Shown: positions 5,411 to 30,586 of the stretch, in pieces | Layout: every line of letters starts with the position of its first letter | How positions within the stretch are numbered: the first letter of the stretch is position 1 | Assembly (NCBI GenBank): GCA_964515375.1 | Contig: CAZERF010000004.1 | Span: forward strand, 22,012-86,011 | Direction: 5' to 3' | DNA from: an uncultured Candidatus Saccharibacteria bacterium | GTDB taxonomy: Bacteria > Patescibacteriota > Minisyncoccia > Phycocordibacterales > UBA6899 | DNA length: 64,000 nt | The notes under the pieces: generated by a model | What the model was told of the DNA's origin: nothing | Seen by the model: only the letters and a program-made list of their open reading frames with translations | The model's database searches: none | Translations under genes and position numbers: made by a program

Positions 5411-6530
5411 TATGAAGATTGTGATCGCGACTCCACTTTATCCACCCGATGTGGGCGGTCCTGCAACATACGCGAAGGCGCTCGAGGACGCGCTTCCCTC
5501 TCATGGAGTTGAAGTCGTTCTTGTCTCCTTTCATGCGGTACGACATCTGCCGAAGGGTATTGCGCATCTCGTGTATGCTTTCAAATTATTTCGCGCGTCA
5601 CGCGGGTGCGACGCGATTCTCGCGCTTGACCCTGCGTCGGTCGGACTTCCCGCGGCGATCATCGCACGTCTCACTCGGACCCCTTTTGTTGTGAAGATCG
5701 TCGGTGATTATGCATGGGAGCAGGGGAGACAACGTTTCGGTGTCGCGCAAGGTCTTGATGAATTTGTCGCGACGGACGCGACACACTTTGCTCGTCCTGT
5801 CCGGATCCTTCGCACGGTGCAAACCTTCGTCGCAAGAAGCGCGCGCCAGATCATTGTTCCGAGCGAATACCTGAAGCGCATTGTTTTGGCGTGGGGGATA
5901 TCGAGCGGAGTGATCACTGTCGTCTACAACACCTATAATGGTGTCGGCCCATTGCCGTCTCGCGACATGCTCCGCGAAGCGCTGGGACTCTCGGGGACGA
6001 TCATCCTCTCGGCGGGACGATTGGTCCCGTGGAAAGGTTTTGGCACGCTCATCGGACTCATGAGGGAGGTGCGACAAACGATTCCCGACGCGCAACTGAT
6101 CATCGCCGGTGGTGGTCCGCTCGAAGGGGAACTTCGCGCGCAGGTTGTGAAAGAGGGCGCAGAGGAGTTTGTGACGCTTCTTGGCAATATTCCACATGAT
6201 GATCTGTTGCGCTATGTTGGTGCCGCAGATCTCTTTGTGCTGAATACGGGGTACGAAGGCCTCTCACACCAGCTGCTCGAAGTCTTGGCGATCGGGACTC
6301 CGATCGTGACCACGAACGTGGGAGGAAATCCGGAGCTGATCGAGGATGGCGTGACGGGACTCCTTGTGCCCTATGATGACAACAACCGCTTGTATACCGC
6401 GATCACGACGCTTCTTCTCGACAAGGAGCTGGGTCACCGGTGCACAGAAAACGGAAAACAATTCGTTGCGCAGTTCTCAAAAGAACGTATGATAAGTGGA
6501 ACATTATCGACTCTACGACACCTTTCATGA
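5411..6530 (+). CDS. glycosyltransferase family 4 (GT-B)
   Basis: Start MKIVIATPLYPPDVGGPATYAK. C-terminal EX7E-type region 'EGLSHQLLEVLAIGTPIVTTNVGGNPELIEDGVTGLLVP'. Confidence 0.8.
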
Positions 6531-7633
6531 ACATCCTTTCCCTTGGACTTGATCGTAAGCTGGCGGATCCTCAGTCGGTGGGCGCGTGGCGTCAGGTCGC
6601 CTACTATCGCGGACACCAAGCGAAAGTCTATATCCTCGAAACCGGCACTCCTGCGCATCTGTGGATCGAGAATGTGGAGACGGTCATTCCCGGCGGCGCA
6701 AATAAGATAGTGGTTGGGTTTCGCACACTTGCGCGGCTGCTTTTTTCAGACACGAAATTCGATCTTGTGATCGCGCAGGATGTGCTCGTCATCGGGCTCT
6801 TGGGCTACCTCATTGCGCGCCGACATGGTGCGCGACTGGTGACACAAGTACACGGCGATTATCTCGACAATCCGCGCTGGCTTTCCGAACGCAAGGGAAA
6901 CTACGTACGCAATGCGATAGGGAAGTTCGTCCTCAAGCACTCCGATGGTATCCGTTGTGTGAGCAAGAAGATCGTCGATGATCTCCATGAGCGATTGCAT
7001 GTTCCGAGTGAGAAGTTACTTTCCGCTCCGATTGGGACCGATCTTTCCATGTTCACCCCCGAGGGTGAGCATGCCGATGTCGGCGGACCTTTTGTGCTCT
7101 TTGTTGGACGATTACTTCCGGAAAAATCTCCATTTCTCTATTGCGATGTAATGATTGAACTCATGCGTGAACATGTGACACTCCGTGCGGTCTTCGCCGG
7201 AGACGGACCCCTGCGCGAGGAACTGGAGAAGCGTTTTGTTGATGCGGGGTTTGGTGCTCGCGTACATTTTCTTGGGCATATCGGAGGCGCGGAGCTTGCG
7301 AAGTATTACCGTTCGGCGCGTGTCATGCTCCACACCGCGGGGTGGGAAGGGTGGGGGATGCCCATGGTGGAGTCCCTTGCTTGTGGATGCCCCGTGGTGA
7401 CCACCGACACAGGGTGCGCGGGAGAAGCGGTTCTTCACGACGTGAACGGACTCATTGTGCCCATTGATGACGTGGAAGGGATGTCTCGCGAAACAAAACG
7501 GATTTTGGAGGATGATACGCTCCACGCACGACTCTCTGTGGCGGGTCCGACTGAGGCCGCAAAGTGGTCGTTTGATGCACTTTCTGCTCGGATCAGGAGT
7601 TGGTATGAGACCATTGCCGCGAAAGAGAAGTAA
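6527..7633 (+). CDS. glycosyltransferase family 4
   Basis: 'EGWGMPMVESLACGCPVVTTDTGCAGEAVLHDVNGLIVP'. Start MNILSLGLDRK overlaps the upstream stop by 4 nt. Confidence 0.8.
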   Translation: MNILSLGLDRKLADPQSVGAWRQVAYYRGHQAKVYILETGTPAHLWIENVETVIPGGANKIVVGFRTLARLLFSDTKFDLVIAQDVLVIGLLGYLIARRHGARLVTQVHGDYLDNPRWLSERKGNYVRNAIGKFVLKHSDGIRCVSKKIVDDLHERLHVPSEKLLSAPIGTDLSMFTPEGEHADVGGPFVLFVGRLLPEKSPFLYCDVMIELMREHVTLRAVFAGDGPLREELEKRFVDAGFGARVHFLGHIGGAELAKYYRSARVMLHTAGWEGWGMPMVESLACGCPVVTTDTGCAGEAVLHDVNGLIVPIDDVEGMSRETKRILEDDTLHARLSVAGPTEAAKWSFDALSARIRSWYETIAAKEK

Positions 7634-7644
7634 TAGATAGTGAA

Positions 7645-8604
7645 ATGAAAAACGAGGACTCGCAACAATGGAATGTTTTGGTGACTGCGGCGGGAGGGCC
7701 GGCGGGAGTGAACGCTTTGCGCCTTCTTCGTGCACACCCGGAATTACGTCTTTTTGGCGTGGATATTGACCCCGAATCTTTAGGGAGAGAGATCGCACAT
7801 GAATTCGCGGTGGTGGCTCCATTTGTTGAGCGTGAACGCTATCGTGAGGACCTTCGACGCATGGTCACTGAATGGAAGATCCATGTCGTCATCCCGACGC
7901 TTGCGGATGAACTCCACGAGATCGAGGAGGCACTCGCGGGGCTTTCGGTGCACGTCTTGGTATCACCCCGCGAGACTGCGCGTATCTGTTCCGATAAGCG
8001 ACTGCTGTATACGTGGATGGAGGAGTATCTTCCTGAATATACCGCGCAGTGGCAGACGCTTGATCATCCGCTTGCGTGGGACGCTCCGGAGTATTTTGTG
8101 AAGCCCGCGGTCGGTCGCGGCGCGCGCGGGTGCCGACTCGTAAAAAAGGAAGATCTCCCGGCGCTTATCGCGGATCTTGAGCATCCCGAAGAATGGGTAG
8201 CGATGGATGTCCTTCCCGGAAAGGAGTGGACGGTTGATGCGTATGTTGCCCGCGACGGAGAGCCTGTCTTCATCGTGCCTCGCGAGCGGATGGAGGTGGT
8301 GGGGGGTATTTCGCGTCGCGGTCGCACGGAGCGTCATGCGCAGGTGATCGCGCAGACACGTGCGGTTCTCGATGTGCTTTCTTTTGTCGGCCCTGTTTGC
8401 GTGCAATGGAAGGAGGATGGTATGGGTGGGGTGAAATTGGTGGAGATCAACGCACGACTCTCCGGCGGGCTCATGATCACGGTCGCCGCAGGTGCAGATC
8501 CGATGAAGATATTTGCCGATGAATTGCTCGGGCGCCCGTTGGTGCCGCCGGAATGGCAGGAGGGAGAATTCACGGGGTTTACCGATTTTACCAGAGCAAG
8601 GTAA
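7645..8604 (+). CDS. ATP-grasp domain protein
   Basis: N-terminal Rossmann-like 'VLVTAAGGPAGVNALR'. The C-terminus has the ATP-grasp pattern '...VEINARLSGG'. Confidence 0.7.
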   Translation: MKNEDSQQWNVLVTAAGGPAGVNALRLLRAHPELRLFGVDIDPESLGREIAHEFAVVAPFVERERYREDLRRMVTEWKIHVVIPTLADELHEIEEALAGLSVHVLVSPRETARICSDKRLLYTWMEEYLPEYTAQWQTLDHPLAWDAPEYFVKPAVGRGARGCRLVKKEDLPALIADLEHPEEWVAMDVLPGKEWTVDAYVARDGEPVFIVPRERMEVVGGISRRGRTERHAQVIAQTRAVLDVLSFVGPVCVQWKEDGMGGVKLVEINARLSGGLMITVAAGADPMKIFADELLGRPLVPPEWQEGEFTGFTDFTRAR

Positions 8605-8610
8605 TATGAA

Positions 8611-9219
8611 TTGCATATGAATGTCATTGCATTCGGGGCACATCCTGACGATATCGAGATCGGAGCCGGAGGCACACTTGCTCGGCATGTGGCGGAAGGT
8701 GATAGGGTTATGATGGTTGTGTTGACGGGCGGAGAGCGCGGCGGAGCGGACACGACGACTCGCGTACAAGAACTCAAGGATTCCGCCAAGATATTAGGTG
8801 TGCAGGAGGTGGTCTGTCTTGATTTTCCCGATACGGATATTCCCGAGTCACCGGCTGTTGTTGATCAGCTCGATGCCCTTGTTGCAAAGTGGAAACCGAA
8901 GCGCGCATATATTCCTTTTACGCGCGAGATCCACCAGGATCATCGGCGGACATCCGAGCAAGCGCTTGTCGCTTGTCGGAATATGCCCCAGATATTGATG
9001 TATGAAGGTCCGAGCACGTTCCCCGATTTTGAGGTGAACTACTGGGTTGATATTACAACTACGATCGACAAGAAGAGTGTGGCGATCGCCGCATACGGAA
9101 GTCAAGGTGAGAAAGAGATATTAAAGATCGACGCGATCCGTAGTCTCAATCGCTTCCGCGGTTTCCAGGCGCGCGGAACGTATGCCGAAGGTTTTCATGT
9201 TTTTCGTTTCATCGAGTGA
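8611..9219 (+). CDS. PIG-L/LmbE family N-acetylglucosaminyl deacetylase
   Basis: 'NVIAFGAHPDDIEIGAGGTLA' is the family signature (AHPDDE-like), followed by conserved His/Asp positions. Confidence 0.8.
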   Translation: MHMNVIAFGAHPDDIEIGAGGTLARHVAEGDRVMMVVLTGGERGGADTTTRVQELKDSAKILGVQEVVCLDFPDTDIPESPAVVDQLDALVAKWKPKRAYIPFTREIHQDHRRTSEQALVACRNMPQILMYEGPSTFPDFEVNYWVDITTTIDKKSVAIAAYGSQGEKEILKIDAIRSLNRFRGFQARGTYAEGFHVFRFIE

Positions 9220-9222
9220 CCG

Positions 9223-10350
9223 ATGCGGATGCGTCCTATGCAGCACAAGAAAAAAAAACTCTGTTTTGTTCTTCCTGAGTACGCATCCGCGACACACTTC
9301 ACTTATGTCGCGGAGTTTATTGAAGCGCTTGCGGAGGAGTTCGATATATTTTTGATCGTTGAGAAGGGGATGCTTCCCGCGACATCACGCGTTTCTCGTC
9401 GGTATCGGGTACGCTCTCGTTTCGCACCTTTGCGCGTTCTTGAGACCATGTTCCTTCTTTTGCGCGCACGATCGCTCGGTTTTCGCATACAATACATTCA
9501 CTATTCATTCGTTGGTGCGATCGGAAGCGGGCTGATCACGCGTCTCTTTGGAGGAAGAACATTGTACTGGAATTGCGGGATGCCGTGGAAGTATACGCGT
9601 CCGCGCATCCAAGAATGGTATGAACATCTTGCTTTTCGTTTCATTCATATATTGGTGACGGGGGCCGACGCGCTCGTTTCGGGATATGCGAGATACTTCG
9701 GTATTTCCGCCGAGTCCATTGTTGTCATTCCGAACTGGATCGACGTTGCCGCTACTGACCGCACCGTCGCTCACCATGACAACGCTTCGCTTCGGCAAGA
9801 ACTTGCTATCCCTCTTGATGCGCCGATCCTCCTTTTTGTGCATCGGCTCGCGCGGCGCAAGGGGGCACACCTTCTTCCTGACATCCTCGCGCGGATAGAG
9901 CACCCGCATGCAGTCCTTGTCGTTGTTGGGGACGGTCCCGAGCGTGCTCTCCTTTCGGAGCGTTTTCGTTCGGAGGGGCTTTTCGAACGGGTGCGCATGG
10001 TGGGCGCGATCCCGCAGCATGAGGTCTTTCGGTATCTTTCCGCGGCGAATATCTTTCTTCTACCCTCAGAGGAGGAGGGGTTTCCTCATGTCCTCACCGA
10101 AGCAATGACGCTTCGTGTGCCGTATGTCGCAAGCGATGTCGGCGGAGTGCGCGAGATGACTCCTCCTGAGGCCCGTTCATTCATTGTTCCGTTTGGCGAT
10201 GTTCCTCACTTCGCGCGGGCGGTTGACCGGTTGATCGCAGACACGACGCTCCGCTCTCATGTTGGAGATACTCTACGGCAATGGGTTGTTCGTTATGATA
10301 AGAAACTTATTCTCGAACGATTCTCCTCGCTTATTCGGGGAATTTCATGA
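9223..10350 (+). CDS. glycosyltransferase family 4
   Basis: 'EEEGFPHVLTEAMTLRVPYVASDVGGVREM'. Confidence 0.8.
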   Translation: MRMRPMQHKKKKLCFVLPEYASATHFTYVAEFIEALAEEFDIFLIVEKGMLPATSRVSRRYRVRSRFAPLRVLETMFLLLRARSLGFRIQYIHYSFVGAIGSGLITRLFGGRTLYWNCGMPWKYTRPRIQEWYEHLAFRFIHILVTGADALVSGYARYFGISAESIVVIPNWIDVAATDRTVAHHDNASLRQELAIPLDAPILLFVHRLARRKGAHLLPDILARIEHPHAVLVVVGDGPERALLSERFRSEGLFERVRMVGAIPQHEVFRYLSAANIFLLPSEEEGFPHVLTEAMTLRVPYVASDVGGVREMTPPEARSFIVPFGDVPHFARAVDRLIADTTLRSHVGDTLRQWVVRYDKKLILERFSSLIRGIS

Positions 10351-10392
10351 CAGGGGCTTCTTTTTTCGGGAAGAAGTCTTGGATCACGAAAA

Positions 10393-10430
10393 AGAAAAAC
10401 AGCACATGAGAGGTCATGTGCTGTTTTTTT
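10393..10430. terminator. bidirectional rho-independent terminator
   Basis: 'cagcacatgagaggtcatgtgctg' hairpin with an A-run before and a T-run after, between convergent genes. Confidence 0.6.
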
Positions 10431-10433
10431 GTT

Positions 10434-10988
10434 TTAGACGATGAGCTCGCGCCAATTCTGCCAATTGATGCGACGTTTTTCCGGCGCGGTTGTGTTGTAT
10501 GTACGTTCAAAGACGAGGTGTTCCCACGAGGGTGTTCGTATTCCCTTGACGCTCTCCGCGTCGTCGATAAGGAAGTCACCGTGGACAAGCGTTTTGTCTC
10601 GCGCGGTATAGATCCGCATGGTCCAATCGCGACCAAGGTGTTCCTCGACCCATGCAAACTTTTCGGGTACACAAAACTGATATTCCCAGATCGGCGCGGT
10701 GCAGATGTACACCTCATGACCTTCACTCTGCATTGCGGTCAATGCTTCCTTTGCGCCGGGGATGAGGGGGAGTGAACGGAAGAACCCCTCTTGATTGCGG
10801 AGTGATTTGATCAGTGTGTGGTGTTCCTCGGGAAAATTTCGCTCAAACTCATAGTGCTTATCCGCTCCCGAATAGGTAGTGAACACGTTGGGGTAGTCTC
10901 GCTCGAGTATTGCAAGAAATCTCGCGTGCTGGTCGGCGATCACGCCGTCCATGTCGACAAGTATCGTTCGTGGTGTAGTCATGGTCAA
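10434..10988 (-). CDS. 5'(3')-deoxyribonucleotidase (HAD superfamily, NT5C family)
   Basis: 'ILVDMDGVIAD' aspartyl-phosphate motif, 'ICTAPIWEYQFCVPEKFAWVEEHLG', 'RDKTLVHGDFLIDD' and 'TPSWEHLVF' track the NT5C/dNT family along the whole length. Confidence 0.85.
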   Translation of the reverse strand: MTMTTPRTILVDMDGVIADQHARFLAILERDYPNVFTTYSGADKHYEFERNFPEEHHTLIKSLRNQEGFFRSLPLIPGAKEALTAMQSEGHEVYICTAPIWEYQFCVPEKFAWVEEHLGRDWTMRIYTARDKTLVHGDFLIDDAESVKGIRTPSWEHLVFERTYNTTAPEKRRINWQNWRELIV

Positions 10989-11053
10989 ATAGTACCTCCC
11001 AAGTGACGAGAGGACAATATTTCCCTTTATTCAAACTTTGCTACACTGAATTC

Positions 11054-12196
11054 ATGAGTATCCATCTTCTCATGTTGCATGACGACGCCGCTATTCTTGA
11101 CACCGATTCTCCTCTCCGCGCACGTTTGCGTGAACAAGCCGAATCGCTCATCGAGCTTCACGTGCTTGTGCCGTCGAGCAAAAGAGGGGATCACGAGCTG
11201 GTGAGGGATGGAAACATGTTCATCTACCCGATCGACACGTCGAAGAAGTGGGCGTTTTTTTCGGAGATGCGACGTGTCGGAGGCGAGATCTTGAGGGAAC
11301 GCGATAGAGCTGCGCGTTGGCTCGTGACCGCGCAGGATCCCTTCATGGTCGGCGCCGTCGCGTACCTCCTTGCCCGTCGTTTTCGTCTTCCGCTTCATCT
11401 CCAGGTGCACACCGATCCGTTCAGCCCTCGGTGGAGAACCGCTTCCTTGCGACATCGGATCGAATACGTGCTCTCACTTTTTCTTCTCACGCACGCCGAT
11501 GCGATACGCGTTGTATCGGAGCGAGTTCAAAGTGGGGTTCGCGCGCTCGGTGTTCCGAGTTCAAAGATCACCAAGGTCCCCATTTGGGTTGACGTTGATC
11601 ATTTTCGCGCCACCCCCGCATCGTTTGACCTTCATCGTTCATATCCGATCTACGCGAAGATCATCCTTTGCATCGGACGATTGGAACCCGAGAAGAACGT
11701 CAACGGTCTCATTCGCGCATTCGCGCGCGTGCACAAGGCTCACAGGGATACGATGTTGCTTATTGTCGGAAGCGGTTCCGAGAAGGAACGTCTCGTCACA
11801 CTTGCACGCTCTCTTGATCTCAAAAATTCCGTTGTTGTTGCTCCGTGGGCGCGAGACCTCGTCTCGTACTATAAGACCTGTGATATCTACGTGCAGCCTT
11901 CACATTATGAAGGGTGGGGGATGGCCGTTGTCGAAGCGCTTGCATCGGGAGCGCCGGTCATTATGACCGACGTCGGGTGCGCGGGAGAGATCGTGCGCAA
12001 TGAAGACACAGGGCTTGTTGTGCGTGTCGGAAGCGAGGACGAACTCACCCACGCCCTCATGCGTCTCGTTGAGAACAATTCCTTGCGGCTCGCGCTTTCT
12101 GCCGCCGGTTCGCGCGCGGTCGAACATTGTGCGACCAAAGAGGAGACCCTCGAGTTGTATAAGGCGAGTTGGGAGCGCGCCTTCACGCGGAACTGA
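11054..12196 (+). CDS. glycosyltransferase family 4
   Basis: 'EGWGMAVVEALASGAPVIMTDVGCAGEIVRNEDTGLVV'. The ORF is open from 11003; the start is taken at MSIHLLML. Confidence 0.8.
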   Translation: MSIHLLMLHDDAAILDTDSPLRARLREQAESLIELHVLVPSSKRGDHELVRDGNMFIYPIDTSKKWAFFSEMRRVGGEILRERDRAARWLVTAQDPFMVGAVAYLLARRFRLPLHLQVHTDPFSPRWRTASLRHRIEYVLSLFLLTHADAIRVVSERVQSGVRALGVPSSKITKVPIWVDVDHFRATPASFDLHRSYPIYAKIILCIGRLEPEKNVNGLIRAFARVHKAHRDTMLLIVGSGSEKERLVTLARSLDLKNSVVVAPWARDLVSYYKTCDIYVQPSHYEGWGMAVVEALASGAPVIMTDVGCAGEIVRNEDTGLVVRVGSEDELTHALMRLVENNSLRLALSAAGSRAVEHCATKEETLELYKASWERAFTRN

Positions 12197-12206
12197 CGAG
12201 AATATC

Positions 12207-13223
12207 ATGCCGAGCAAAAGATCCGCGACACCGCAAAAACCAAAAAAGATCGTCGTTATTGGAGGAGGAACGGGAACCTTTACCGTCCTCTCCGGACTCA
12301 AACACTATCCGGTCGAACTCTCCGCGATCGTCGCGATGTCCGACGACGGTGGTTCGACCGGGCGATTGCGTGACGAATTTGGCGTCCTCCCTCCCGGCGA
12401 CCTTCGCCAGTGTCTCGTCGCGCTTTCGGAGGCGGATGTTGTCATGCGCAAACTCTTTACTCATCGCTTTGATCGCGGAGACCTTGCGGGTCATAGTTTT
12501 GGCAATATCTTCATCTCCACCCTCGAGCAGGTCACCGGATCGCTTGGGCACGCGCTTGATGTCGCGGGGAAGATCCTAAACATTCGCGGGCGTGTGATCC
12601 CTGTCACCTTCTCAAAAGTTGAACTTATCGCGGAACTCCGGAATGGAAAGGTGTTGAAAGGTGAGCATTCCATCACCGATTATCAGCTTGTATCACGCTT
12701 TGGGATCAAGCGTCTCCGTCTCGCGCCCCGCCCAACGCTCAATCCCGACGCGCGCAAAGCAATCCGCGAAGCCGATATGGTCATTGTTGGACCGGGTAAT
12801 CTTTATTGCTCCCTCATCCCCAACTTTCTTGTTCCCGGACTTGGTCGCGCGCTTGCCGCGTCGTCCGCGCAAAAGGTTTATGTCGCGAATTTGATGAACA
12901 AACACGGACACACGGATGATTTCTCCGTGCGTGAATACGTTGCAGTGCTTGAAGGTGCGATCGGTCGACGTGGAGTCTTTGATGTGGTTATCGAGAACAC
13001 GCAAGCACCTCCACCCGCCTTGGTGCGGAAATACGCCGACGAAGGAAGCCCCCTCACTCCTTTTGTCGTGAAGCGTGGAGACACCTTTCGTCGTGTCGGT
13101 GCGGACCTCCTCGCGGGGCGCCTTCCAAAAGCAAAGAACAAAGACCCGATCCGTCGCACACTCATTCGCCACGACCCCGACAAGCTCGCGCGCGTACTGA
13201 TGCGGATATTAGAAACAACATAA
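12207..13223 (+). CDS. YvcK/CofD-like (UPF0052) gluconeogenesis-factor family protein
   Basis: 'IVVIGGGTGTFTVLSGLKHYPVELSAIVAMSDDGGSTGRLR' is the hallmark N-terminus. Confidence 0.8.
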   Translation: MPSKRSATPQKPKKIVVIGGGTGTFTVLSGLKHYPVELSAIVAMSDDGGSTGRLRDEFGVLPPGDLRQCLVALSEADVVMRKLFTHRFDRGDLAGHSFGNIFISTLEQVTGSLGHALDVAGKILNIRGRVIPVTFSKVELIAELRNGKVLKGEHSITDYQLVSRFGIKRLRLAPRPTLNPDARKAIREADMVIVGPGNLYCSLIPNFLVPGLGRALAASSAQKVYVANLMNKHGHTDDFSVREYVAVLEGAIGRRGVFDVVIENTQAPPPALVRKYADEGSPLTPFVVKRGDTFRRVGADLLAGRLPKAKNKDPIRRTLIRHDPDKLARVLMRILETT

Positions 13224-13236
13224 TCATTCACACATC

Positions 13237-14103: not shown

Positions 14104-14113
14104 CGCTCCTCGC

Positions 14114-18363: not shown

Positions 18364-18381
18364 TATGGTGCGCATGAGATC

Positions 18382-21801: not shown

Positions 21802-21805
21802 ATAT

Positions 21806-23683
21806 ATGTGTGGTATTGCAGGGATCATAGATAAGACGGGTAGGCCAGTCGGATCGAGCACTGTTTTGGAGATGCTTGAGACCATGCCTTATCGTGGTCC
21901 GAATGACCGTGGTACCTTTTGCGACGGTCCGATCGGGCTTGGTCATTTGCGTTTGAGTATTCTCGATCTTTCTCAAAATGGTCATCAGCCGATGAAAGAC
22001 AATACCGGCGACTTGACGATCGTCTTTAATGGCGAGATCTTCAATTATCTCGAGATCAAAGAAGAGCTCGAGAGGACCGGGCATACTTTTCATACGCATT
22101 CTGACACGGAGGTCATTCTCGCGGCGTACCGGGCGTGGGGAAGTGCGTGTGTTTCGCGATTCAATGGGATGTGGTCGTTTGCGTTGTGGGATCGCGCCAA
22201 GCAAACGCTTTTTTGTTCGCGTGATCGTTTTGGAGTAAAGCCGTTCTTTTATCATGACGCTCCCGAGCATTTCTTTTTCGCGTCAGAAATGAAGGCGATC
22301 CTTTCGGCACTCCCGCAAAAACCCGAAATGAATGGCGCGTATCTCTATCAATATCTTGATCGCAATGTGTCGGAGGATCCAACTGATACGGTTTTCCAGG
22401 GCATCAAGATGCTCCCTCCCGGGCATAATTTGATCGTGAGTGAAGGGAAGCTTTCGGTCGAGCAATACTGGCGGGTCGATCTCGCGCGTTTTCGCGCTTC
22501 CTACGACTACACCGATCCGGTCGCAACATTTCGCGAACTCCTTGTTGATGCGGTCCGTCTGCGCTTGCGCTCTGATGTTCCCGTCGGAGTCTGTCTTTCG
22601 GGCGGTCTTGATTCGAGCACGATCGTCGGCATCATCTCCGGAATACTCGGACAAAAGATCAGTGTCTTTTCTTCGGTCTACGCCGATCCAAAATACAATG
22701 AAGAAGAATTTCTTGATGCTGTCCTTGAAAGGTATCCCAACACGGTCCACAAGATCACTCCCGACCCCAAGCGATTCTTTGCTGTCATGGATCAAGTTGT
22801 TGCGCATCATGACGAACCGATCCGCATGCCGTCGACTTTTTCGCAGTGGCACATCTTTCAGTGTGTACATGATCACAAGATCACGGTGACGCTCGACGGG
22901 CAAGGGGCGGACGAGTTGCTTGGCGGATACCGCGAATATTATCCGTCATATCTCGCGACACTTTTCCGGGATGCGTTGCGCACCGTGAGTTTCAAAAAGC
23001 TCCATACATTTTTTCGGACTCGTAAGGATATCAAGACTTATCTTGGCCGCAATTTCGACAAGGATGTTCTCAAACTCCTTTTGCCTAAAAAAGTTCTCGC
23101 GATGAAGCGCAGGTTCGCTCCGGTCAAGCGATGGCAGGACACGATCCTTGCGGAGGAGTTCATTGCTCGCTATCGCGGCACTTCGGTCGCCGAGAAAGAG
23201 AACGTGTCTCCGTTTAGAGACCCGCTTAGCCGCCATCTTTTTGAGACTTTCTCGCACACGAATCTTCCCATGGTCCTCGACTTTGAGGATCGGATCAGCA
23301 TGGCGTTCTCGGTCGAAGCGCGAACTCCATTTCTTGATTACCGTATTGTTGAATTTTGCATGGCACTTCCGTATGAGTATAAAATGGACGGGTATCGCAA
23401 CAAGGCGATCCTTCGCGATGCGTTCAAGGATGTGCTCCCCGAGAAGGTCTTTGCGCGCAAGGACAAGAAGGGATTTCCGACACCGAATGAGCATTGGTTT
23501 CGCGATGAAGTGCGAGAGGAATTGCGCGCGATCGTGTATTCCGACTCCTTGGTTCGTCATGGCGTGTTTGACCCAAAAAAGGTGCGTGATCTCTTCGAAC
23601 GTCACCAAAAGGGGGAGAATCACGAGCGCCTCCTGGTGCGTGTTGCCAGCACCGAGTTGTGGATGAGAAAATATTTTGATTGA
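21806..23683 (+). CDS. asnB: asparagine synthetase B-type glutamine amidotransferase (glycan amidotransferase candidate)
   Basis: 'MCGIAGIIDK' class-II GATase N-terminal Cys, and the 'CLSGGLDSS' PP-loop. Confidence 0.85.
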   Translation: MCGIAGIIDKTGRPVGSSTVLEMLETMPYRGPNDRGTFCDGPIGLGHLRLSILDLSQNGHQPMKDNTGDLTIVFNGEIFNYLEIKEELERTGHTFHTHSDTEVILAAYRAWGSACVSRFNGMWSFALWDRAKQTLFCSRDRFGVKPFFYHDAPEHFFFASEMKAILSALPQKPEMNGAYLYQYLDRNVSEDPTDTVFQGIKMLPPGHNLIVSEGKLSVEQYWRVDLARFRASYDYTDPVATFRELLVDAVRLRLRSDVPVGVCLSGGLDSSTIVGIISGILGQKISVFSSVYADPKYNEEEFLDAVLERYPNTVHKITPDPKRFFAVMDQVVAHHDEPIRMPSTFSQWHIFQCVHDHKITVTLDGQGADELLGGYREYYPSYLATLFRDALRTVSFKKLHTFFRTRKDIKTYLGRNFDKDVLKLLLPKKVLAMKRRFAPVKRWQDTILAEEFIARYRGTSVAEKENVSPFRDPLSRHLFETFSHTNLPMVLDFEDRISMAFSVEARTPFLDYRIVEFCMALPYEYKMDGYRNKAILRDAFKDVLPEKVFARKDKKGFPTPNEHWFRDEVREELRAIVYSDSLVRHGVFDPKKVRDLFERHQKGENHERLLVRVASTELWMRKYFD

Positions 23684-24770
23684 TATGAAGGTCTTTATTG
23701 TTACGATCAATTTTCCCGTGGACGAACTCGTTGGAGGAGCGGAACTCCAAGCGTATTTTTTGGCCAAGCATCTTCCCGCACAAGGGGCGAAGACGACCTT
23801 TGTCGCTCTACGCAATCATGCGGGTGATGCATACGTGACGGAACGCGATGGCTTCCTTGTGCGCGCGATGTCGGGAAAGAATGAGCCGATGTGGCGGGCT
23901 TTGGTGCGACTTTTTAAGCTTTTCCGTACGGAGAGACCCGACGTGTGTTACCTCCGTGAGTTCCGAGTGCTTTTCCCGATGTTTGTTGTGTGTCGCCTCG
24001 CGGGAGTTCCGCTCGTTTTCAATACAACGCACGAGAAGAATCTGTATCTCTATTATGGATGGCAGGGGGTGAAGGGGACGCTTTTTCACGCGCTCAGTTT
24101 TTTGACCTTGCGTTTTGTCGACCGGATCGTGACCAACAATACCGCACATGCCGCGTTCCTTTCTGGTCGTTATTATATTTCAGCAACCCCGATCTTGAAT
24201 AGCATGGAAGATCATTACGAGCCGGGCACCGTGAAAGCAAAGCGCGTCTTGTGGGTTGCGAACGTGAAAACACGCAAGCGACCCGAGATCTTTATTGAGC
24301 TTGCGGACCGTTTTCGTGATTCGGGATATGAATTTGTCATGGTCGGACACTTGTATGGGGAGAGCGGCCGTTATCACGATATGATCGCGCGGGCAACGAA
24401 AGAAAATCCCTCTTTCCGCTTCGTGGGAGGAAAGACTCCGCGTGAGGTTGATGATCTCCTCGCCTCTTCGGAGATCTTTGTTTCCACCTGTAAACCAGAA
24501 GGATTTCCCAACAATATCATCCAGGCGTGCATGGCGGAATGTGCGATCGTGAGCTTTGATTACGATCCTGACGGTATTTTTGCTCGCGAGCATATCGGCT
24601 TTGTCCCAACCACTCTTGATGGTACAATGCTCATCATCCGAAAAATCATGGAGGATGAAGCAATGCGAAAGGAGTTCGGTTTGCGTGCTCGTGCATACGC
24701 CCTCAAGCATCACTCCCTCGACCGAAATATGGAGACATTTTATAATTTATTTTTGTCACTCACGAAGTGA
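23676..24770 (+). CDS. glycosyltransferase (GT-B, GT4/GT1-like)
   Basis: N-terminal Glyco_trans_4-like region; C-terminal 'CKPEGFPNNIIQACMAECAIVSF'. Confidence 0.65.
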   Translation: MIDMKVFIVTINFPVDELVGGAELQAYFLAKHLPAQGAKTTFVALRNHAGDAYVTERDGFLVRAMSGKNEPMWRALVRLFKLFRTERPDVCYLREFRVLFPMFVVCRLAGVPLVFNTTHEKNLYLYYGWQGVKGTLFHALSFLTLRFVDRIVTNNTAHAAFLSGRYYISATPILNSMEDHYEPGTVKAKRVLWVANVKTRKRPEIFIELADRFRDSGYEFVMVGHLYGESGRYHDMIARATKENPSFRFVGGKTPREVDDLLASSEIFVSTCKPEGFPNNIIQACMAECAIVSFDYDPDGIFAREHIGFVPTTLDGTMLIIRKIMEDEAMRKEFGLRARAYALKHHSLDRNMETFYNLFLSLTK

Positions 24771-24782
24771 CGAGAAAACGAT

Positions 24783-25511
24783 ATGAAAGATTTTGAAAGA
24801 CACGAAGTCACCTGGACAGAAGAAAAACTTGCTCGGTTCTGGGATTTTTTCTCGTCGCTTGGAATGGCATACGAGGATGAATATTTTTCGAACATATGGG
24901 GTGACGATATTTTGGATTATGTGGAGAAGACGGGTGTGCTCAATGGCAAGGTCGTCGATTTTGGCTGTGGGCCCGGACATTTGATGGCAAAGTTGTTCCG
25001 TCGCGGTGTCGCGTGTGAGGGCTTAGACTTTTCTGAGCATTCTATCGATGAGGTCAAAAAACGTTTCGCGAATGAACCACTTTTCCGTGGAGGTCATGTT
25101 GTGCAATCGTTACCATCTGATATTCCCGATGCGTCTGTTGATGTTCTCTTTTTTATCGAGACGATCGAGCATGTGCTTCCTGAACAAATGGAAGCGACGC
25201 TCAAGGAATTTGAGCGAATTGTGAGGAAGGGGGGGCGTATCGTCGTGACCACTCCTCATGCGGAGAAGCTCGATCGCAAGAAGGTGTGTTGTCCCGATTG
25301 TGGCGCGGTTTTTCATCGCGTGCAGCATATTCGTTCCTCCACGGTGGATTCTCTGAATACACTGTTTGCGCAGTATGGTTTCGAGCCCGCATTCTCAAAG
25401 GCGGTGACATTCTATCCGCACTCATTCCTCAATCTCTTGCGCAAATTCCGCGACGAGAAGATCAACAAGCACAAGCCGCACCACCTTATTTATATCGGAC
25501 AGAAGAAATAG
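24783..25511 (+). CDS. class I SAM-dependent methyltransferase with CxxC zinc-ribbon insertion
   Basis: 'VVDFGCGPGHL', 'IETIEHV', 'RKGGRIVVTTP', 'CCPDCGAVFH'. Confidence 0.75.
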   Translation: MKDFERHEVTWTEEKLARFWDFFSSLGMAYEDEYFSNIWGDDILDYVEKTGVLNGKVVDFGCGPGHLMAKLFRRGVACEGLDFSEHSIDEVKKRFANEPLFRGGHVVQSLPSDIPDASVDVLFFIETIEHVLPEQMEATLKEFERIVRKGGRIVVTTPHAEKLDRKKVCCPDCGAVFHRVQHIRSSTVDSLNTLFAQYGFEPAFSKAVTFYPHSFLNLLRKFRDEKINKHKPHHLIYIGQKK

Positions 25512-25521
25512 TATTTCCTTC

Positions 25522-26388
25522 ATGCGCTTGAGAGCGGATTGGACAACTCATCTTCATAATTTCCGGAAACGGGAGATTGATATCATTTTTCGCGATTGCC
25601 CTCCCGGTCATTTTGAGTCCGCTCTTGAGCTGGGTGCGGGTGACGGATTCCAAAGTCGCATACTTGCTTCGTACGCGCGAAGACTTGTTGCGACTGAGTA
25701 CAATGAAGCGCGCCTGGAGCGTCGCGAAGTTCCCGGTGTTTTCTACGAGGTGTGCGATGCGGAACGTGTCGATGAATATTTTCCAGCACATGCATTTGAT
25801 CTTGTTTTTGCGTCAAATCTTTTCGAACATCTCCCTCATCCGGAGCAGGCGTTACAGGGGGTACGGCACGTGCTTCGCGACGACGGGGTCGTCATTCTCG
25901 TTATGCCGAGCGTATTCTGGAAATGCACACATCTTGCTTTCTTTTATCCCAACCTCATCCTTTCTTTTTTTGAGAAGGTCCTGGTCCCGGGGAAGATCGC
26001 GGAGTGGTGGGGGCGGTATGCTCTTCGTCGGAGGGAGGCACCTCCGGTGATCGAGGTTGCGGGTACCGTGAGTTCTTTCGGAAACAATCAAAAAGGGAGG
26101 GTCGGACATGTTTCTTCGCGTGGAATATTTTTTCCTGCGCCACATGGAGTTTCATCCGGAAACATCGCGGAGTTTGCGGCGTTTCGCGCGAAGCGATGGA
26201 CGGCGCTGTTTGCGGCGGAGGGATTTTCTGTGTGTGCCATCCTTCGCGGTCCTGTTGCGTCAGGGTATGGATTTGGGCTTGATCGGATCCGTACGCTCCT
26301 TGAGCGTCTTGGATTTGCATCTGAGTACGTCTATGTACTCAAAAAGACTAGCGCGACGGAGGTAAAGTATCCTTTCATACGATCATGA
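25522..26388 (+). CDS. class I SAM-dependent methyltransferase
   Basis: 'ALELGAGDGFQS', 'FASNLFEHLPHPEQAL', 'DDGVVILVMP'. Confidence 0.75.
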   Translation: MRLRADWTTHLHNFRKREIDIIFRDCPPGHFESALELGAGDGFQSRILASYARRLVATEYNEARLERREVPGVFYEVCDAERVDEYFPAHAFDLVFASNLFEHLPHPEQALQGVRHVLRDDGVVILVMPSVFWKCTHLAFFYPNLILSFFEKVLVPGKIAEWWGRYALRRREAPPVIEVAGTVSSFGNNQKGRVGHVSSRGIFFPAPHGVSSGNIAEFAAFRAKRWTALFAAEGFSVCAILRGPVASGYGFGLDRIRTLLERLGFASEYVYVLKKTSATEVKYPFIRS

Positions 26389-27041
26389 TCCGTACCTTGC
26401 TCAATATTCTTCCGCGGCCACTTGTGCGGCCACTTGTCATACTCTTTGACCGCAAGAAGAAAGAAGATATGGAGCGACTCTATGCCACGGAGGGTGATCA
26501 TTGGGGTCGCACGGAAAGCATGGCGCAGATCAAAGACGCACTGGGGCTTCTCGGCGCTCGCCGATATCGCCATGTGCTTGATGCGGGTGCGGGGGAGGGG
26601 TATGTCGCGGAGGCGCTTGCGTCGCGCGCCGAGTGTGTCACTGCGATCGATATTTCTGAGCATGCGATCACGGCGGCGCGCATTCGATGTGCGCACCTTG
26701 CGCATGTGCATTTTATTTCCGCGAATATTCGCACGTGGAAGAGTGAAGAGCGGTTTGACCTCATTGTGCTTGCCGATGTTTTGTATTATCTCGGGGACGC
26801 ACTCTTTCCCGGCATCTTTATGGAGACGATCGCGCATATCGGCGCTCTTGCGGCGGAAGACGGAGAGATCCTCGTTACCCATTTTATTGCTCCGTGGCGA
26901 GACGGAGATATTGTGGAGATGTATATTCGTGCATTCACAGAAGCGGGATTTGTTTTGATGCGCGATACGATCTATCGGAGCGAGGAGAAAGAGTGGAGAC
27001 ACCTCTTGCTCAAGAAGGAGTCTCGTCCGGCATCCGTCTGA
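26385..27041 (+). CDS. SAM-dependent methyltransferase (NodS-like)
   Basis: 'HVLDAGAGEGYVAEALASR...VTAIDISEHAI'. Confidence 0.7.
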   Translation: MIRTLLNILPRPLVRPLVILFDRKKKEDMERLYATEGDHWGRTESMAQIKDALGLLGARRYRHVLDAGAGEGYVAEALASRAECVTAIDISEHAITAARIRCAHLAHVHFISANIRTWKSEERFDLIVLADVLYYLGDALFPGIFMETIAHIGALAAEDGEILVTHFIAPWRDGDIVEMYIRAFTEAGFVLMRDTIYRSEEKEWRHLLLKKESRPASV

Positions 27042-28272
27042 CGAGTGCAAGTGCGGTGAAAAGCCCCATAAAGCGGTTGACGATCCGTGCGATGATGAGT
27101 CCAAGCAGTCCGCCGAGATACATGAAGACAAAGAGGATGACGACCGAGAGGATCGCGATCCATGTGTTCAAGAAATAAAGCTCCTTCTGTGCTTTCTTTG
27201 CTTGGAGTGCGGAGAGGGGGACTGCAGAAGAGGTTGCGATGAGCGAGATCGCGAAGAGTTGTGAGTAAATGACGGCTTCCATGTATTTAGGAAAAAGGAT
27301 CGAAAAGAGAAATGGTGCGGCGATGATATAGAGCCCGACACCAACCGCGATGACCGCCGAGAAGCGCAGGCTCTTTGAGAGAACCGTTTTTTTGATGTCT
27401 TCAGTTTTTGCATCGCTCAGTTTGGGGAGTGCCAGTGTGTTCGCTCCCTTGAGTACGGCACCCATGTTGTCGGGTCCGGCGAGTGCAATGGAATAGATCG
27501 CCATTTCGACCGCACCGAGAAAGTGGAAGACGAGCAATCGATCGGCATATCCCGCAACGGTACCAAGAACGCCCATCAAGCTTAAGTGTTTTCCATACGG
27601 TATTGTGCCCGGGTCGATCATGTCGTTGGGTCGTTGCGTGCGGAGAGTAACAAGGAGTCCTCCGATGCGACCGATCGTCCACGGCAGGAAGTAAGCAAGG
27701 ATGATCGCAAGAATGTTGTCGGTCACGAAGATGGTCACGCCCATAATGATGGCCGCGACAGTCTGTGTGATGAGGAAGTAATTCGTCAATCTCTTGAAAT
27801 CTTTGCGCCCGGTAAGGATCGATTCGTAGACCGTGAGTGAATCAAAGAATGGGGTAAAGATGGCAACAACGAGCATAGAAGCGGTCAAGATCGGATCGTG
27901 CTCGATGAAATGGTAGTATCCGGCAAGAAGAAGACTCGCGAGTGCCCCCAGTGTTCCCCACGAGATGCGCGTGCGGAGTGCCGGCTTGATCGTTCCTTCA
28001 TATCCGCGCGCGACGGCTTGTGTCAGTGCTGTGTTGATTCCCATGAGACTCGGGAGCGCGACGATGCTCGCGATCGTGAGGATGTATTTGTATGTTCCGT
28101 AGGTCTCTTTCGGGGCAAAATTCGCAAAGAGTATCACGAGGAGGAAGCTTGACCCCGACGCAATAACTTGTCCAAAAGTAAGCCAAAAACCCCCTTTGGC
28201 GATATAGAGCATGTCGGTCTTGAAATAGCGCTCGCTTTTACGGAGGAGGGAATAGAGAAGATTTTTCATCAT
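27010..28272 (-). CDS. wzx: polysaccharide biosynthesis protein / Wzx-type flippase (MOP superfamily)
   Basis: ~420 aa with ~12 TM helices and an N-terminal 'MKNLLYSLLRKSERYFKTDMLYIAKGGFWLTFGQVIAS' typical of the Polysacc_synt family. Confidence 0.75.
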   Translation of the reverse strand: MMKNLLYSLLRKSERYFKTDMLYIAKGGFWLTFGQVIASGSSFLLVILFANFAPKETYGTYKYILTIASIVALPSLMGINTALTQAVARGYEGTIKPALRTRISWGTLGALASLLLAGYYHFIEHDPILTASMLVVAIFTPFFDSLTVYESILTGRKDFKRLTNYFLITQTVAAIIMGVTIFVTDNILAIILAYFLPWTIGRIGGLLVTLRTQRPNDMIDPGTIPYGKHLSLMGVLGTVAGYADRLLVFHFLGAVEMAIYSIALAGPDNMGAVLKGANTLALPKLSDAKTEDIKKTVLSKSLRFSAVIAVGVGLYIIAAPFLFSILFPKYMEAVIYSQLFAISLIATSSAVPLSALQAKKAQKELYFLNTWIAILSVVILFVFMYLGGLLGLIIARIVNRFMGLFTALALVRRMPDETPS

Positions 28273-28390
28273 GGTCGCTCGGACATGTGTATTTTGTGTC
28301 CGCTCGGTGTTCATAGTATACAACATCGCGGGAGGGAAAAGGTCATTTTCCACGTTGCGTGAGCGTTTGTTCCCCTATATAGTAGTATCC

Positions 28391-30586
28391 ATGACATTAC
28401 GCGAACTTTTGCGTTTCACCATACTCGCATGTGTGTTTGTGACGCCTTTTATCGGCCTTATCGTTGCGGAAAGCATGTTCTTTCCCTTTATTACCGGAAA
28501 GAATTTCACCTTCCGCATCCTCGTTGAAGTGATGCTTGGCGCGTGGGCGCTCCTCATGCTGCTCGATAGCACCTATCGTCCCAAGTTCTCATGGGTCCTT
28601 GCCGCCGCGGGAACATTTCTCGCGGTCATTGCGGTCGCGGACTTCACGGGTGTGAACCCATACAAGAGTTTTTGGTCCAACTACGAGCGCATGGAAGGAC
28701 TCATTACCCTCGCGCATCTTTTCCTCTATTTCATCATTGCCGGGACGGTAGTACGCGCGGAGGAGGTGTGGAAGTGGCTCTGGCGCACATCGCTCGCGGT
28801 GTCTTTCTATGTCGCGGGGTATGCCTTCTCGCAGAAGTTCGGCGATACCGCCATCCATCAGAGTGCGACACGTCTCGACGCGACCTTTGGCAATGCGGCC
28901 TATCTCGGTATCTACGCGCTCTTCCATTTCTTCCTCGCGGTATTTCTTTATGCGCGCTCCAAGAGAGAAAGTGGACTCCATTTCATCTATCCGATCATTG
29001 CCGGAGCGAACCTCTTCACGCTCTACTTTACACAGACGCGCGGTTCGATGCTCGGTCTTCTTGGCGGAATGTTTCTGGTCGCCCTCCTCGTCGCGGTCTT
29101 TGAGCGCGAGCGCCCCTCTTTGCGCAAGTGGGCGATAGGGGGGATCGTCGGGGTGGTCGCCCTTGTCGGACTCTTCATTACATTTAAGGACACGAGTTTC
29201 ATTCAGTCGAGCGAGACCTTGCGTCGTATGGCGTCGATCTCGCTTTCCGACACGACGACCAAGTCGCGCTTCATGGTTTGGGAGATGTCGTGGGAAGGAT
29301 TCAAGGAACGCCCGATCCTCGGCTGGGGACAGGAGAACTTCCTCTATGTCTTCGCCAAGCACTACAACCCGGGCATGTATGCGCAAGAGCCGTGGTTCGA
29401 TCGTTCGCACAACGTCTTTCTTGATTGGATGATCGCGGGAGGTATCCTTGGTATCCTTTCGTATCTCTCCATGTTCGCGGCACTTCTGTACTATCTTTGG
29501 TTCACGAAGCGTCACGGTTTCTCGGTGCTTGAGAAAAGTCTCTTGACCGGAATGCTTGGCGGATACTTCATTCACAACATTTTTGTCTTCGACAATCTGA
29601 CGAGTTACATCGTCTTCTTCACGATCTTGGCCTACGTCCACGCACACGTGAGTGCGACGAGCGAATCGGAGGCGAAGGAGGCGCGCAAGAAGAAGGGCGA
29701 AGAACTCGAGACGGGAGATATCGCGGTAGCATCTGTCGTCATTGTTGCCCTTACTATTGCGATGGTCTACTTCGTGAATATTCGCAATATCAACGCAAAC
29801 CTCGCGCTCATCAGCGCCATTCGTCCCGAGACGGTCTTGGTAGACGACGGAAGAGGGGGCAAGCGTATCGCAATGGAGGACGTGCTTGCGCTCGGACTTT
29901 TCGGAAGCGACGAAGCGCGTGAGCAGCTTGTGCAATTCGCGGTGCAAACGCTTGACCCCCGTATCCCCGTTGAGATCCGTCAGCAGTTCTACGATCTGAC
30001 GGCGCGCGAGTTCGACGCGGAGATGGTGAGCGACCCCCTAAATGTTCGCACGCTTTCATTCGCGGCATCCTTCTATGCGCGTTTTGGTCAATACGATCGA
30101 GCGCTCCCGCTCTTTGAGAAGGCGATCGAACTTTCCCCCGGTCGTCAGTCGACGTATCTTGATCTCGCGATGATGCTCGTGTCGCTTCAGCGTTTTGCGG
30201 AGGCACAAGAGATCGCCAAGACCGCGTACGAGCTCGAAAAAGCGAACACACAAGCGGGCATCACCTATGTGATGACGCTCATCTACAACAATCAGACCGA
30301 CTTGGCCTATACCATCGCAAGCGAGATCGGTGACGCGGGTTATGACACGCGCATCGTGAATGCGTACGGAAACACCGGCAACTACAACAAGGTCGTGCAG
30401 CTGGTGAACGAAAAGGTCGCGCGCGGTCTCGCGACGGGACGTGACCACTTCTCGCTCGCGGGAGCACTCTATTCGCTCGACAACAAAGAAGAGGCGTTGC
30501 TTGCGCTCGATCGCGCGGTTGCGCTCGACACGTCACTTTCCGCCGAAGCCGAGAACTTGAAAAAGCAGATCGAAGGAGCAAAGTAA
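28391..30586 (+). CDS. O-antigen ligase / Wzy_C-like membrane protein with C-terminal TPR repeats
   Basis: Multi-TM N-terminal half containing 'TQTRGSMLGLLGG' (Wzy_C-type loop). The C-terminal ~250 aa are helical TPR-like repeats. Confidence 0.7.
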   Translation: MTLRELLRFTILACVFVTPFIGLIVAESMFFPFITGKNFTFRILVEVMLGAWALLMLLDSTYRPKFSWVLAAAGTFLAVIAVADFTGVNPYKSFWSNYERMEGLITLAHLFLYFIIAGTVVRAEEVWKWLWRTSLAVSFYVAGYAFSQKFGDTAIHQSATRLDATFGNAAYLGIYALFHFFLAVFLYARSKRESGLHFIYPIIAGANLFTLYFTQTRGSMLGLLGGMFLVALLVAVFERERPSLRKWAIGGIVGVVALVGLFITFKDTSFIQSSETLRRMASISLSDTTTKSRFMVWEMSWEGFKERPILGWGQENFLYVFAKHYNPGMYAQEPWFDRSHNVFLDWMIAGGILGILSYLSMFAALLYYLWFTKRHGFSVLEKSLLTGMLGGYFIHNIFVFDNLTSYIVFFTILAYVHAHVSATSESEAKEARKKKGEELETGDIAVASVVIVALTIAMVYFVNIRNINANLALISAIRPETVLVDDGRGGKRIAMEDVLALGLFGSDEAREQLVQFAVQTLDPRIPVEIRQQFYDLTAREFDAEMVSDPLNVRTLSFAASFYARFGQYDRALPLFEKAIELSPGRQSTYLDLAMMLVSLQRFAEAQEIAKTAYELEKANTQAGITYVMTLIYNNQTDLAYTIASEIGDAGYDTRIVNAYGNTGNYNKVVQLVNEKVARGLATGRDHFSLAGALYSLDNKEEALLALDRAVALDTSLSAEAENLKKQIEGAK

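Follow-up and report, generated by a model that had tools for sequence, protein, structure and literature searches.

A Trm9-like methyltransferase gene pairs with Elp3 within a Patescibacteria surface-glycan region and suggests a tRNA rather than a glycan role for Elp3

Why should a gene for Elp3, an enzyme of tRNA wobble-uridine (U34) modification, lie in the middle of a cell-envelope glycan locus? The question is raised by positions 5412-30586 of a 64-kb stretch of contig CAZERF010000004.1, from an uncultured Candidatus Saccharibacteria bacterium (the whole stretch is hereafter the window), where a Patescibacteria (Parcubacteria/Paceibacteria, Lloydbacteria-like) glycan region of the Wzx/Wzy_C type surrounds an Elp3 gene at 14855-16546 on the + strand. 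The original prediction, which placed this gene at exactly these coordinates, left two readings side by side: Elp3 might act on a sugar or lipid-linked intermediate, or it might be a tRNA enzyme lodged in the locus. We find that Elp3 is paired with a gene that the prediction had not singled out, encoding a Trm9-like class-I S-adenosylmethionine (SAM) methyltransferase on the - strand (14114-14836), and we consider it likely that the two form a tRNA wobble-uridine module lodged in the glycan region and that Elp3 is not a glycan-tailoring enzyme.

The 563-residue Elp3, which is identical to an NCBI-sourced protein in a public collection, matches TIGR01211 at 526.7 bits (cut-off 350) over residues 65-563 and aligns over its whole length with MinElp3, the archaeal enzyme of Methanocaldococcus infernus (6ia8, E = 9e-110), and with DmcElp3, the bacterial one of Dehalococcoides mccartyi (5l7j, E = 3e-105), both stand-alone tRNA U34 5-carboxymethyluridine (cm5U) synthases of the TIGR01211 family. 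With these enzymes it shares the architecture of a radical-SAM domain followed by a KAT (lysine acetyltransferase) domain, the lack of other Elongator subunits and three motifs that stay unchanged when it is aligned with 11 homologues: the radical-SAM [4Fe-4S] cysteine triad C105/C109/C112 (CPGRCTYC), which matches the MinElp3 motif, the linker Zn-binding cysteine triad C416/C418/C421 (CRCIRC), which is typical of bacterial and archaeal Elp3 (PMC6367351), and the acetyl-CoA motif QHVGFG (QxxGxG; Q511, G514, G516). It also resembles MinElp3 in its extended basic N-terminus but differs from it by an insertion of ~23 residues (about residues 192-214), and it differs from both enzymes in sitting among glycan genes in its clade. 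Pfam detects only Radical_SAM and Radical_SAM_C in this protein, no Pfam GNAT model matching at E 1e-3; we nevertheless accept the GNAT/KAT part because of the full-length TIGR01211 match and the end-to-end alignment to 6ia8, in which the last 150 residues align to the MinElp3 KAT. Elp3 is 60-84% identical to the 119 other matches listed, whose named sources are Candidatus Lloydbacteria, Yonathbacteria, Nomurabacteria and the "Patescibacteria group", and its conservation thus far exceeds that of the tailoring genes on either side, most of which lack orthologues in the flanks of the relatives.

tRNA is the exclusive trigger of acetyl-CoA hydrolysis by bacterial and archaeal Elp3, and tRNA-specific hydrolysis has been demonstrated for both the 6ia8 and the 5l7j enzymes (PMC6367351). 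Judged by its sequence, the window's Elp3 is predicted to be a tRNA U34 cm5U synthase as well. Stand-alone Elp3 is well established in bacteria, in "some bacterial clades" (PMC6367351) and "numerous bacteria" (PMC13315578), and our literature search on Elp3 in Patescibacteria or the candidate phyla radiation (CPR), or on wobble-uridine modification in the CPR, returned nothing relevant.

What looked like a 750-bp gap upstream of Elp3 is the methyltransferase gene on the - strand, its ATG lying 18 bp from that of Elp3 in divergent orientation. Its 240-residue product, also present as an identical NCBI-sourced sequence in the public collection, belongs to a family whose 12-member profile, searched against the PDB, returned Yarrowia Trm9 (5cm2_Z) as the top match (E = 1.2e-22), aligned over profile positions 26-224 from the N-terminal T-R-x3-W to the C-terminal R-Y-x-H; 5cm2 is the Trm9-Trm112 holoenzyme, and the methyltransferase domain of Trm9/ALKBH8 converts cm5U to 5-methoxycarbonylmethyluridine (mcm5U). 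An AlphaFold model (pLDDT 91.4) placed Trm9 second among 350,542 PDB chains in a Foldseek search and first among those functionally characterised. When a family hidden Markov model (HMM) was built without the window sequence, it gave the window methyltransferase 285 bits, the Trm9 fragment 82 bits, and the five other methyltransferases of the locus 55, 47, 28, 22 and 21 bits.

Of the eight residues essential in ScTrm9 (R29, D72, H116, W145, W168, R241, Y243 and N271; PMC4678810), equivalents are kept at R28 (R29), D73 (D72), W146 (W145) and R187 (R241), and the histidine pair H116/H117 corresponds to ScTrm9 H115/H116, H115 being conserved in the family but not among the essential residues (PMC4678810); N271 may correspond to N232, where the alignment is uncertain. 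The likeness to Trm9 thus spans the class-I fold, the N-terminal F-S-x-T-R-x3-W, the HH motif, the catalytic-site Trp and R-Y-x-H, and it extends to genomic pairing with Elp3, since orthologues of Elp3 and of Trm9 are clustered in Sulfolobus according to a passage of PMC6144793 that cites Grosjean et al. 2008. In the combined prediction for the two genes, Elp3 would use SAM and acetyl-CoA to place a carboxymethyl group on C5 of U34 (cm5U), and the methyltransferase at 14114-14836 would methyl-esterify cm5U34 to mcm5U34 in tRNA. Because the two genes would make up a self-contained tRNA module, Elp3 would be a translation enzyme lodged in the locus.

An exact look-up of the window's own Elp3 on public contigs gave no match, and the conservation of the pair was surveyed in relatives instead. 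One genome of each species was scanned with a degenerate pattern, which gave 80 loci with Elp3 relatives 42-75% identical to the window's. Flanks of up to 10 kb on each side were translated into six-frame open reading frames (ORFs) and searched with all window proteins by phmmer; methyltransferase counts refer to the 75 loci whose upstream sequence is 1 kb or longer, and glycan-gene counts to homologues within +/-10 kb of Elp3. Methyltransferase orthologues of the - strand gene, which score 113-300 bits, adjoin Elp3 divergently or lie up to 6 kb upstream on the opposite strand, and the other methyltransferases of the locus reach 25-45 bits only. Overall the methyltransferase is adjacent to Elp3 in 42/75 loci and within 6 kb in 57/75, distributed by Elp3 identity as follows:

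Elp3 68-75% identical: methyltransferase adjacent and divergent in 9/15 loci, within 6 kb upstream in 14/15; glycan-gene homologues in 13/13
Elp3 60-65% identical: methyltransferase adjacent and divergent in 8/19 loci, within 6 kb upstream in 8/19; glycan-gene homologues in 12/15
Elp3 54-61% identical: methyltransferase adjacent and divergent in 2/6 loci, within 6 kb upstream in 4/6; glycan-gene homologues in 3/5
Elp3 at most 51% identical: methyltransferase adjacent and divergent in 23/35 loci, within 6 kb upstream in 31/35; glycan-gene homologues in 1/29

Elp3 homologues are therefore not, as the original prediction had offered as a way to refute its proposal, never glycan-linked in relatives: those at least 60% identical keep glycan neighbours, and this linkage is a clade-limited synteny. 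Distant Elp3 orthologues sit in housekeeping contexts. When 143 ORFs in the +/-5 kb around Elp3 at 13 distant loci were sorted by Pfam family, the methyltransferase (8), Mur ligases (7), GreA (6) and NIF3 (6) came out on top, RtcB (3) was lower, and the top 25 contained no glycosyltransferase family.

At seven distant loci (L054, L058, L062, L072, L074, L076 and L081) 3-5 kb separate the methyltransferase from Elp3. The interposed - strand genes always include one for an MBL-fold hydrolase and one for a radical-SAM RNA methyltransferase resembling RlmN; five of the loci add a Nudix/IDI-like gene and three a GNAT gene. SecA and MurB, the genes that come after the interval in the window, lie within 7 kb of the pair at L064. 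In Candidatus Lloydbacteria GFS_12411 (L002/L004, JAYSTI010000001.1) an insertion resembling a diversity-generating retroelement, with a bAvd accessory protein, an RVT_1 reverse transcriptase and two unknown ORFs, lies at ~7235-9965 (locus coordinates) between the methyltransferase and Elp3. ORFs of 59 and 58 amino acids between the two genes in L001 and L002 were considered as Trm112 candidates and rejected on sequence. The Elp3 frame of "Candidatus Peribacteria" HK-STAS-PATE-10 (L067, CP060226.1, 10001-11575) is interrupted by seven in-frame TGA codons and by no other stop, and several of these codons fall at conserved glycines (VEI*YQ vs VEIGVQ; GF* vs GFG), as expected for recoding of UGA to Gly (genetic code 25) and not for a pseudogene.

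Several observations weigh against reading the two genes as a tRNA module. In the profile search Trm9 is barely ahead of generic class-I methyltransferases (83.5 vs 78 bits), and the first rank in Foldseek goes to an uncharacterised archaeal (Methanosarcina) methyltransferase. The window protein is only ~23% identical to Trm9 and is claimed by no curated family model; at the position of ScTrm9 W168 it and its clade have Phe180, with Trp in most distant orthologues, and at that of Y243 it has Leu189, a position variable in the family. The 64-kb window showed no Trm112-like activator, a CPxC scan of its small ORFs giving only spurious frames. Some Elp3 loci of intermediate identity have no methyltransferase nearby (it lies within 6 kb in the 8/19 given above for 60-65%), and in the window's clade glycan genes flank the pair without exception, also where the genes directly beside it are different ones, which leaves a regulatory or functional link conceivable on sequence evidence.

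These points bear first on the methyltransferase, which could instead be a small-molecule or glycan methyltransferase, or another RNA or protein methyltransferase, whose adjacency to Elp3 reflects a shared promoter architecture. The closeness of generic enzymes to Trm9 in score, the lost Y243 and the missing Trm112 fit such an enzyme, as do the public labels of the family, which read "class I SAM-dependent methyltransferase", "UbiE" or "hypothetical", no NCBIfam model reaching its cut-off. Yet the pairing with Elp3 persists at 42-51% Elp3 identity, in 31/35 loci within 6 kb, where the loci are devoid of glycan genes; among solved structures the profile puts Trm9 first, along the entire length and with the TR..W and RY.H motifs included; and the protein stands much nearer to Trm9 than to any of the other five methyltransferases in the locus. 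We regard this alternative as unlikely.

Regulatory coupling of the tRNA pair to the glycan genes, for instance by read-through into Elp3 that ties envelope synthesis to translational tuning, seems to us distinctly less probable again. The upstream + strand gene ends at 14103, and a promoter scan found no sigma-70-like Elp3 promoter on the + strand between 14104 and 14854, which, together with the synteny conserved within the clade, is what coupling would lead one to expect; but the scan used a crude consensus that may not fit the promoters of the host, the 750-bp antisense gene separates the glycan block from Elp3, and synteny confined to one clade is explained by inheritance.

Recruitment of Elp3 to glycan tailoring, which would have it add a carboxymethyl or acetyl group to a sugar or lipid-linked intermediate of the pathway around it, is the least probable of the three and very improbable in itself: although glycan genes stand on both sides of Elp3 in the window and, where flanks were adequate, in 13/13 of its closest and 12/15 of its next-closest relatives, with neighbours that vary (UGDH-like, GT4c, YvcK and GT4d upstream; GtrA, GT2 and GT4 downstream) and are all glycan genes, the protein bears no sequence sign of neofunctionalisation, with its motifs invariant and 60-84% identity across families, its sole phylum-wide conserved neighbour is the Trm9-like methyltransferase, its distant loci are housekeeping ones with any glycan gene in 1/29, an intact glycan locus exists without it (L083, L084), and tRNA is the exclusive trigger for bacterial and archaeal Elp3 (PMC6367351). 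Of the two readings left by the original prediction, the action on a sugar or lipid-linked intermediate thus finds no support, and the complete motifs, the Trm9-like partner and the Elp3-free glycan loci favour the tRNA enzyme lodged in the locus.

The glycan region that houses the tRNA pair was mapped from a six-frame ORF listing of the window with Pfam and NCBIfam searches. Between 5412 and 30586 there are 25 genes, 21 on the + strand and four on the - strand:

5412-6530, +: glycosyltransferase GT4a (Pfam Glycos_transf_1, 125 bits); conserved upstream block
6527-7633, +: GT4-type glycosyltransferase GT4b; variable cassette
7645-8604, +: ATP-grasp enzyme (Pfam/NCBIfam); variable cassette
8617-9219, +: PIG-L deacetylase (Pfam/NCBIfam); variable cassette
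9223-10350, +: GT4-type glycosyltransferase GT4c; variable cassette
10434-10988, -: NT5C-family 5'-nucleotidase, not glycan-related (PF06941, 93 bits)
11054-12196, +: glycosyltransferase GT4d; conserved block
12207-13223, +: YvcK/CofD-like UDP-GlcNAc-binding protein (TIGR01826, 300 bits); conserved block
13237-14103, +: short UDP-sugar-dehydrogenase-like (UGDH-like) protein, 288 amino acids (Pfam N-terminal and central domains only)
14114-14836, -: Trm9-like class-I SAM methyltransferase, 240 amino acids (Methyltransf_11, 91.6 bits)
14855-16546, +: Elp3 (radical SAM and KAT/GNAT), 563 amino acids (TIGR01211, 526.7 bits)
16632-17075, +: GtrA-family membrane protein (PF04138, 71.7 bits)
17106-17567, -: 153-amino-acid ORF of unknown family (no Pfam match)
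17743-18363, +: class-I methyltransferase MT1 (Pfam/NCBIfam)
18382-19146, +: NodB-type deacetylase (Pfam/NCBIfam)
19143-19772, +: class-I methyltransferase MT2 (Pfam/NCBIfam)
19769-20620, +: glycosyltransferase GT2 (Pfam/NCBIfam)
20617-21801, +: GT4-type glycosyltransferase GT4e
21806-23683, +: AsnB-type amidotransferase (TIGR01536, 456 bits; GATase_7 and Asn_synthase)
23685-24770, +: GT4-type glycosyltransferase GT4f
24783-25511, +: class-I methyltransferase MT3 (Pfam/NCBIfam)
25522-26388, +: class-I methyltransferase MT4 (Pfam/NCBIfam)
26385-27041, +: NodS-like class-I methyltransferase MT5 (Pfam/NCBIfam)
27010-28272, -: Wzx-type flippase, Polysacc_synt (PF01943, 49.7 bits)
28391-30586, +: membrane protein with a Wzy_C domain (O-antigen ligase/polymerase-like) and C-terminal TPR repeats (PF04932, 77.9 bits; TPR families)

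This map bears out the original prediction for the ATP-grasp, PIG-L, NodB, short dehydrogenase-like, AsnB, YvcK, GtrA, Wzx and Wzy_C-TPR proteins, all identified by Pfam/NCBIfam, and for the frequent start/stop overlaps, of which there are five of 4 bp, four of them in the downstream glycan block (17743-27041), most other gaps being 1-18 bp. It corrects the number of glycosyltransferases, which is seven (six GT4 and one GT2) and not nine (eight GT4/GT1-type and one GT2), and the placing of all genes on one strand, since the nucleotidase, one methyltransferase, the 153-amino-acid ORF and Wzx are on the - strand. Six of the predicted six to seven class-I methyltransferases are there, five on the + strand and the sixth being the - strand partner of Elp3. 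Secondary matches to PF20706 ("GT4-conflict"), which might have hinted at a defence system, reach 21-43 bits beneath Glycos_transf_1 matches of 114-145 bits and were rejected. Neither tRNA nor Rfam scans revealed an RNA gene inside the interval, tRNA-Asn at 55073-55146 being the sole RNA gene of the window.

Compared with its relatives, the region is a mosaic of a conserved envelope block, the embedded tRNA pair and variable tailoring cassettes, a reading adopted because a glycan locus exists without the tRNA pair and because tailoring genes lack orthologues in the relatives' flanks. The relatives keep the upstream order GT4a-GT4d-(YvcK)-(UGDH-like)-methyltransferase-Elp3, with GT4a orthologues at 300-450 bits, and GtrA recurs downstream of Elp3; the NodB/MT2/GT2/GT4e/AsnB sub-block is found again in relatives too. 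Within the +/-10 kb flanks of the relatives, GT4b has weak family-level matches only and no orthologue, ATP-grasp and PIG-L have no match at all, and no orthologues of MT3-5, Wzx or Wzy_C were found; GT4c orthologues occur at three loci only (L003, L031 and L034). In two other genomes the neighbourhood of the UGDH-like gene carries no radical-SAM gene: L083 reads GT4-GT4-GT4, UGDH-like, CofD/YvcK, GT, AsnB, MT, GT4, and L084 reads GT4s, UGDH-like, GTs, ABC transporter, GtrA, GT2, GT4, GT2, AsnB (GT, glycosyltransferase; MT, methyltransferase), so that the conserved GT4d/YvcK/UGDH-like block is also present in L083 and, minus YvcK, in L084.

By their family membership, Wzx, the Wzy_C-domain protein and the seven glycosyltransferases point to an oligo- or polysaccharide that is lipid-linked and flipped. 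The region resembles Wzx/Wzy O-antigen and exopolysaccharide loci with WbpS-type amidotransferases in its Wzx, its Wzy_C protein, its multiple GT4/GT2 enzymes, its AsnB with an N-terminal Cys, and its deacetylases and methyltransferases, encoded by co-directional genes that are tightly packed; it differs from them in that neither an initiating phosphoglycosyltransferase nor a chain-length regulator was found in the 64 kb. For the former, a polyprenyl-phosphate glycosyl-phosphate transferase of the WbaP/WecA type, no Bac_transf or MraY/WecA-family match was seen among the scanned ORFs (mostly at least 110 amino acids) of the window, and the enzyme may be encoded elsewhere in the genome. To our knowledge the Patescibacteria lack lipopolysaccharide and an outer membrane, and for this reason the Wzy_C-TPR protein, instead of being an O-antigen ligase, may act as a polymerase or O-oligosaccharyltransferase.

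Heavy tailoring of the glycan by five methyltransferases and two deacetylases is plausible, and the extensive methylation proposed in the original prediction plausibly fits these five, the sixth being assigned to the tRNA module. The GT4/ATP-grasp/PIG-L/GT4 cassette (6527-10350) gives NCBIfam BshA and BshB1 matches below cut-offs, and by analogy with bacillithiol and mycothiol its logic suggests GlcNAc transfer, de-N-acetylation and ligation of a carboxylate to the amine.

The UGDH-like protein is named for UDP-glucose 6-dehydrogenase (UGDH; PF03721, PF00984 and PF03720), with which it shares the Rossmann and central dimerisation domains and the catalytic-Cys motif (GGxCxxKD, here GGHCFIKD). 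Its AF2 model (pLDDT 87.8) gave UGDH for all of the top 50 Foldseek matches, over the NAD-binding and central domains only (TM ~0.77 by query, ~0.5 by target). At 288 amino acids vs ~390-490, with a shortened N-domain and without the C-terminal UDP-sugar-binding domain, it differs from UGDH as a distinct and highly conserved Patescibacteria family (63-96% identity across >100 clusters). Several relatives (L001, L006, L010-L013 and L016) have it as two tandem paralogues. AsnB, with an N-terminal MCGI Cys nucleophile, is wedged between GT4e (4 bp) and GT4f (1 bp), and AsnB and the short UGDH-like protein co-occur in L083, L084 and several relatives, a co-occurrence that spans three lineages. WbpS-type uronamide formation by these two proteins, as suggested in the original prediction, is plausible; a complete nucleotide-sugar 6-dehydrogenase for uronic acid supply was not found in the window, whose sole dehydrogenase, unlike those of WbpS-type loci, lacks the UDP-binding C-terminal domain.

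Elsewhere in the window, a perfect 300-nt direct repeat (3709-4008 and 4516-4815) corresponds to the C-terminal ~100 codons of a 1150-amino-acid secreted beta-helix/LCAT/MBG protein (572-4024), duplicated as the C-terminus of an ORF at 4463-4831 and interleaved with two small membrane-protein-like ORFs without Pfam match (4056-4487 and 4859-5269). A recent duplication or an artefact of assembly may account for it; a template/variable pair of a diversity-generating retroelement was rejected, the copies being 100% identical. Between 54000 and 58000 the GC content is low (0.43-0.48 vs ~0.53), and this stretch, beside tRNA-Asn(GTT), contains an AbiEii/AbiEi type IV toxin-antitoxin pair on the - strand (55478-56811) and looks like a tRNA-adjacent island.

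The result is mainly corrective, in that it removes the tempting idea of a radical-SAM/GNAT enzyme of glycan tailoring and leaves the locus a normal mosaic surface-glycan region. Elp3, its Trm9-like partner and the Wzx/Wzy_C glycan region are all of familiar kinds; what is new is the conservation of the Elp3/Trm9-like pair across the Patescibacteria lineages sampled, with a methyltransferase that is unannotated, which suggests a bacterial mcm5U pathway. For annotation, the gain is that the Patescibacteria family labelled "UbiE" or class I is a conserved partner of Elp3 and the best bacterial candidate for Trm9, and attention is drawn to a conserved short UGDH-like family found together with AsnB in glycan loci of Patescibacteria. 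We know of no bacterium in which mcm5U has been demonstrated. It is possible, and we put it forward tentatively, that Patescibacteria as a group use an archaeal/eukaryote-type pathway of Elp3 (cm5U34) and a Trm9-like enzyme (mcm5U34), maybe without a recognisable Trm112 and possibly in place of MnmE/MnmG, the usual route in bacteria. If so, the Elp3-methyltransferase pair, present at most of the 80 loci, would be the genetic basis of a Patescibacteria mcm5U pathway. Whether these reduced bacteria use mcm5U wobble chemistry of the eukaryote/archaea style can be put to a direct test with two small genes.

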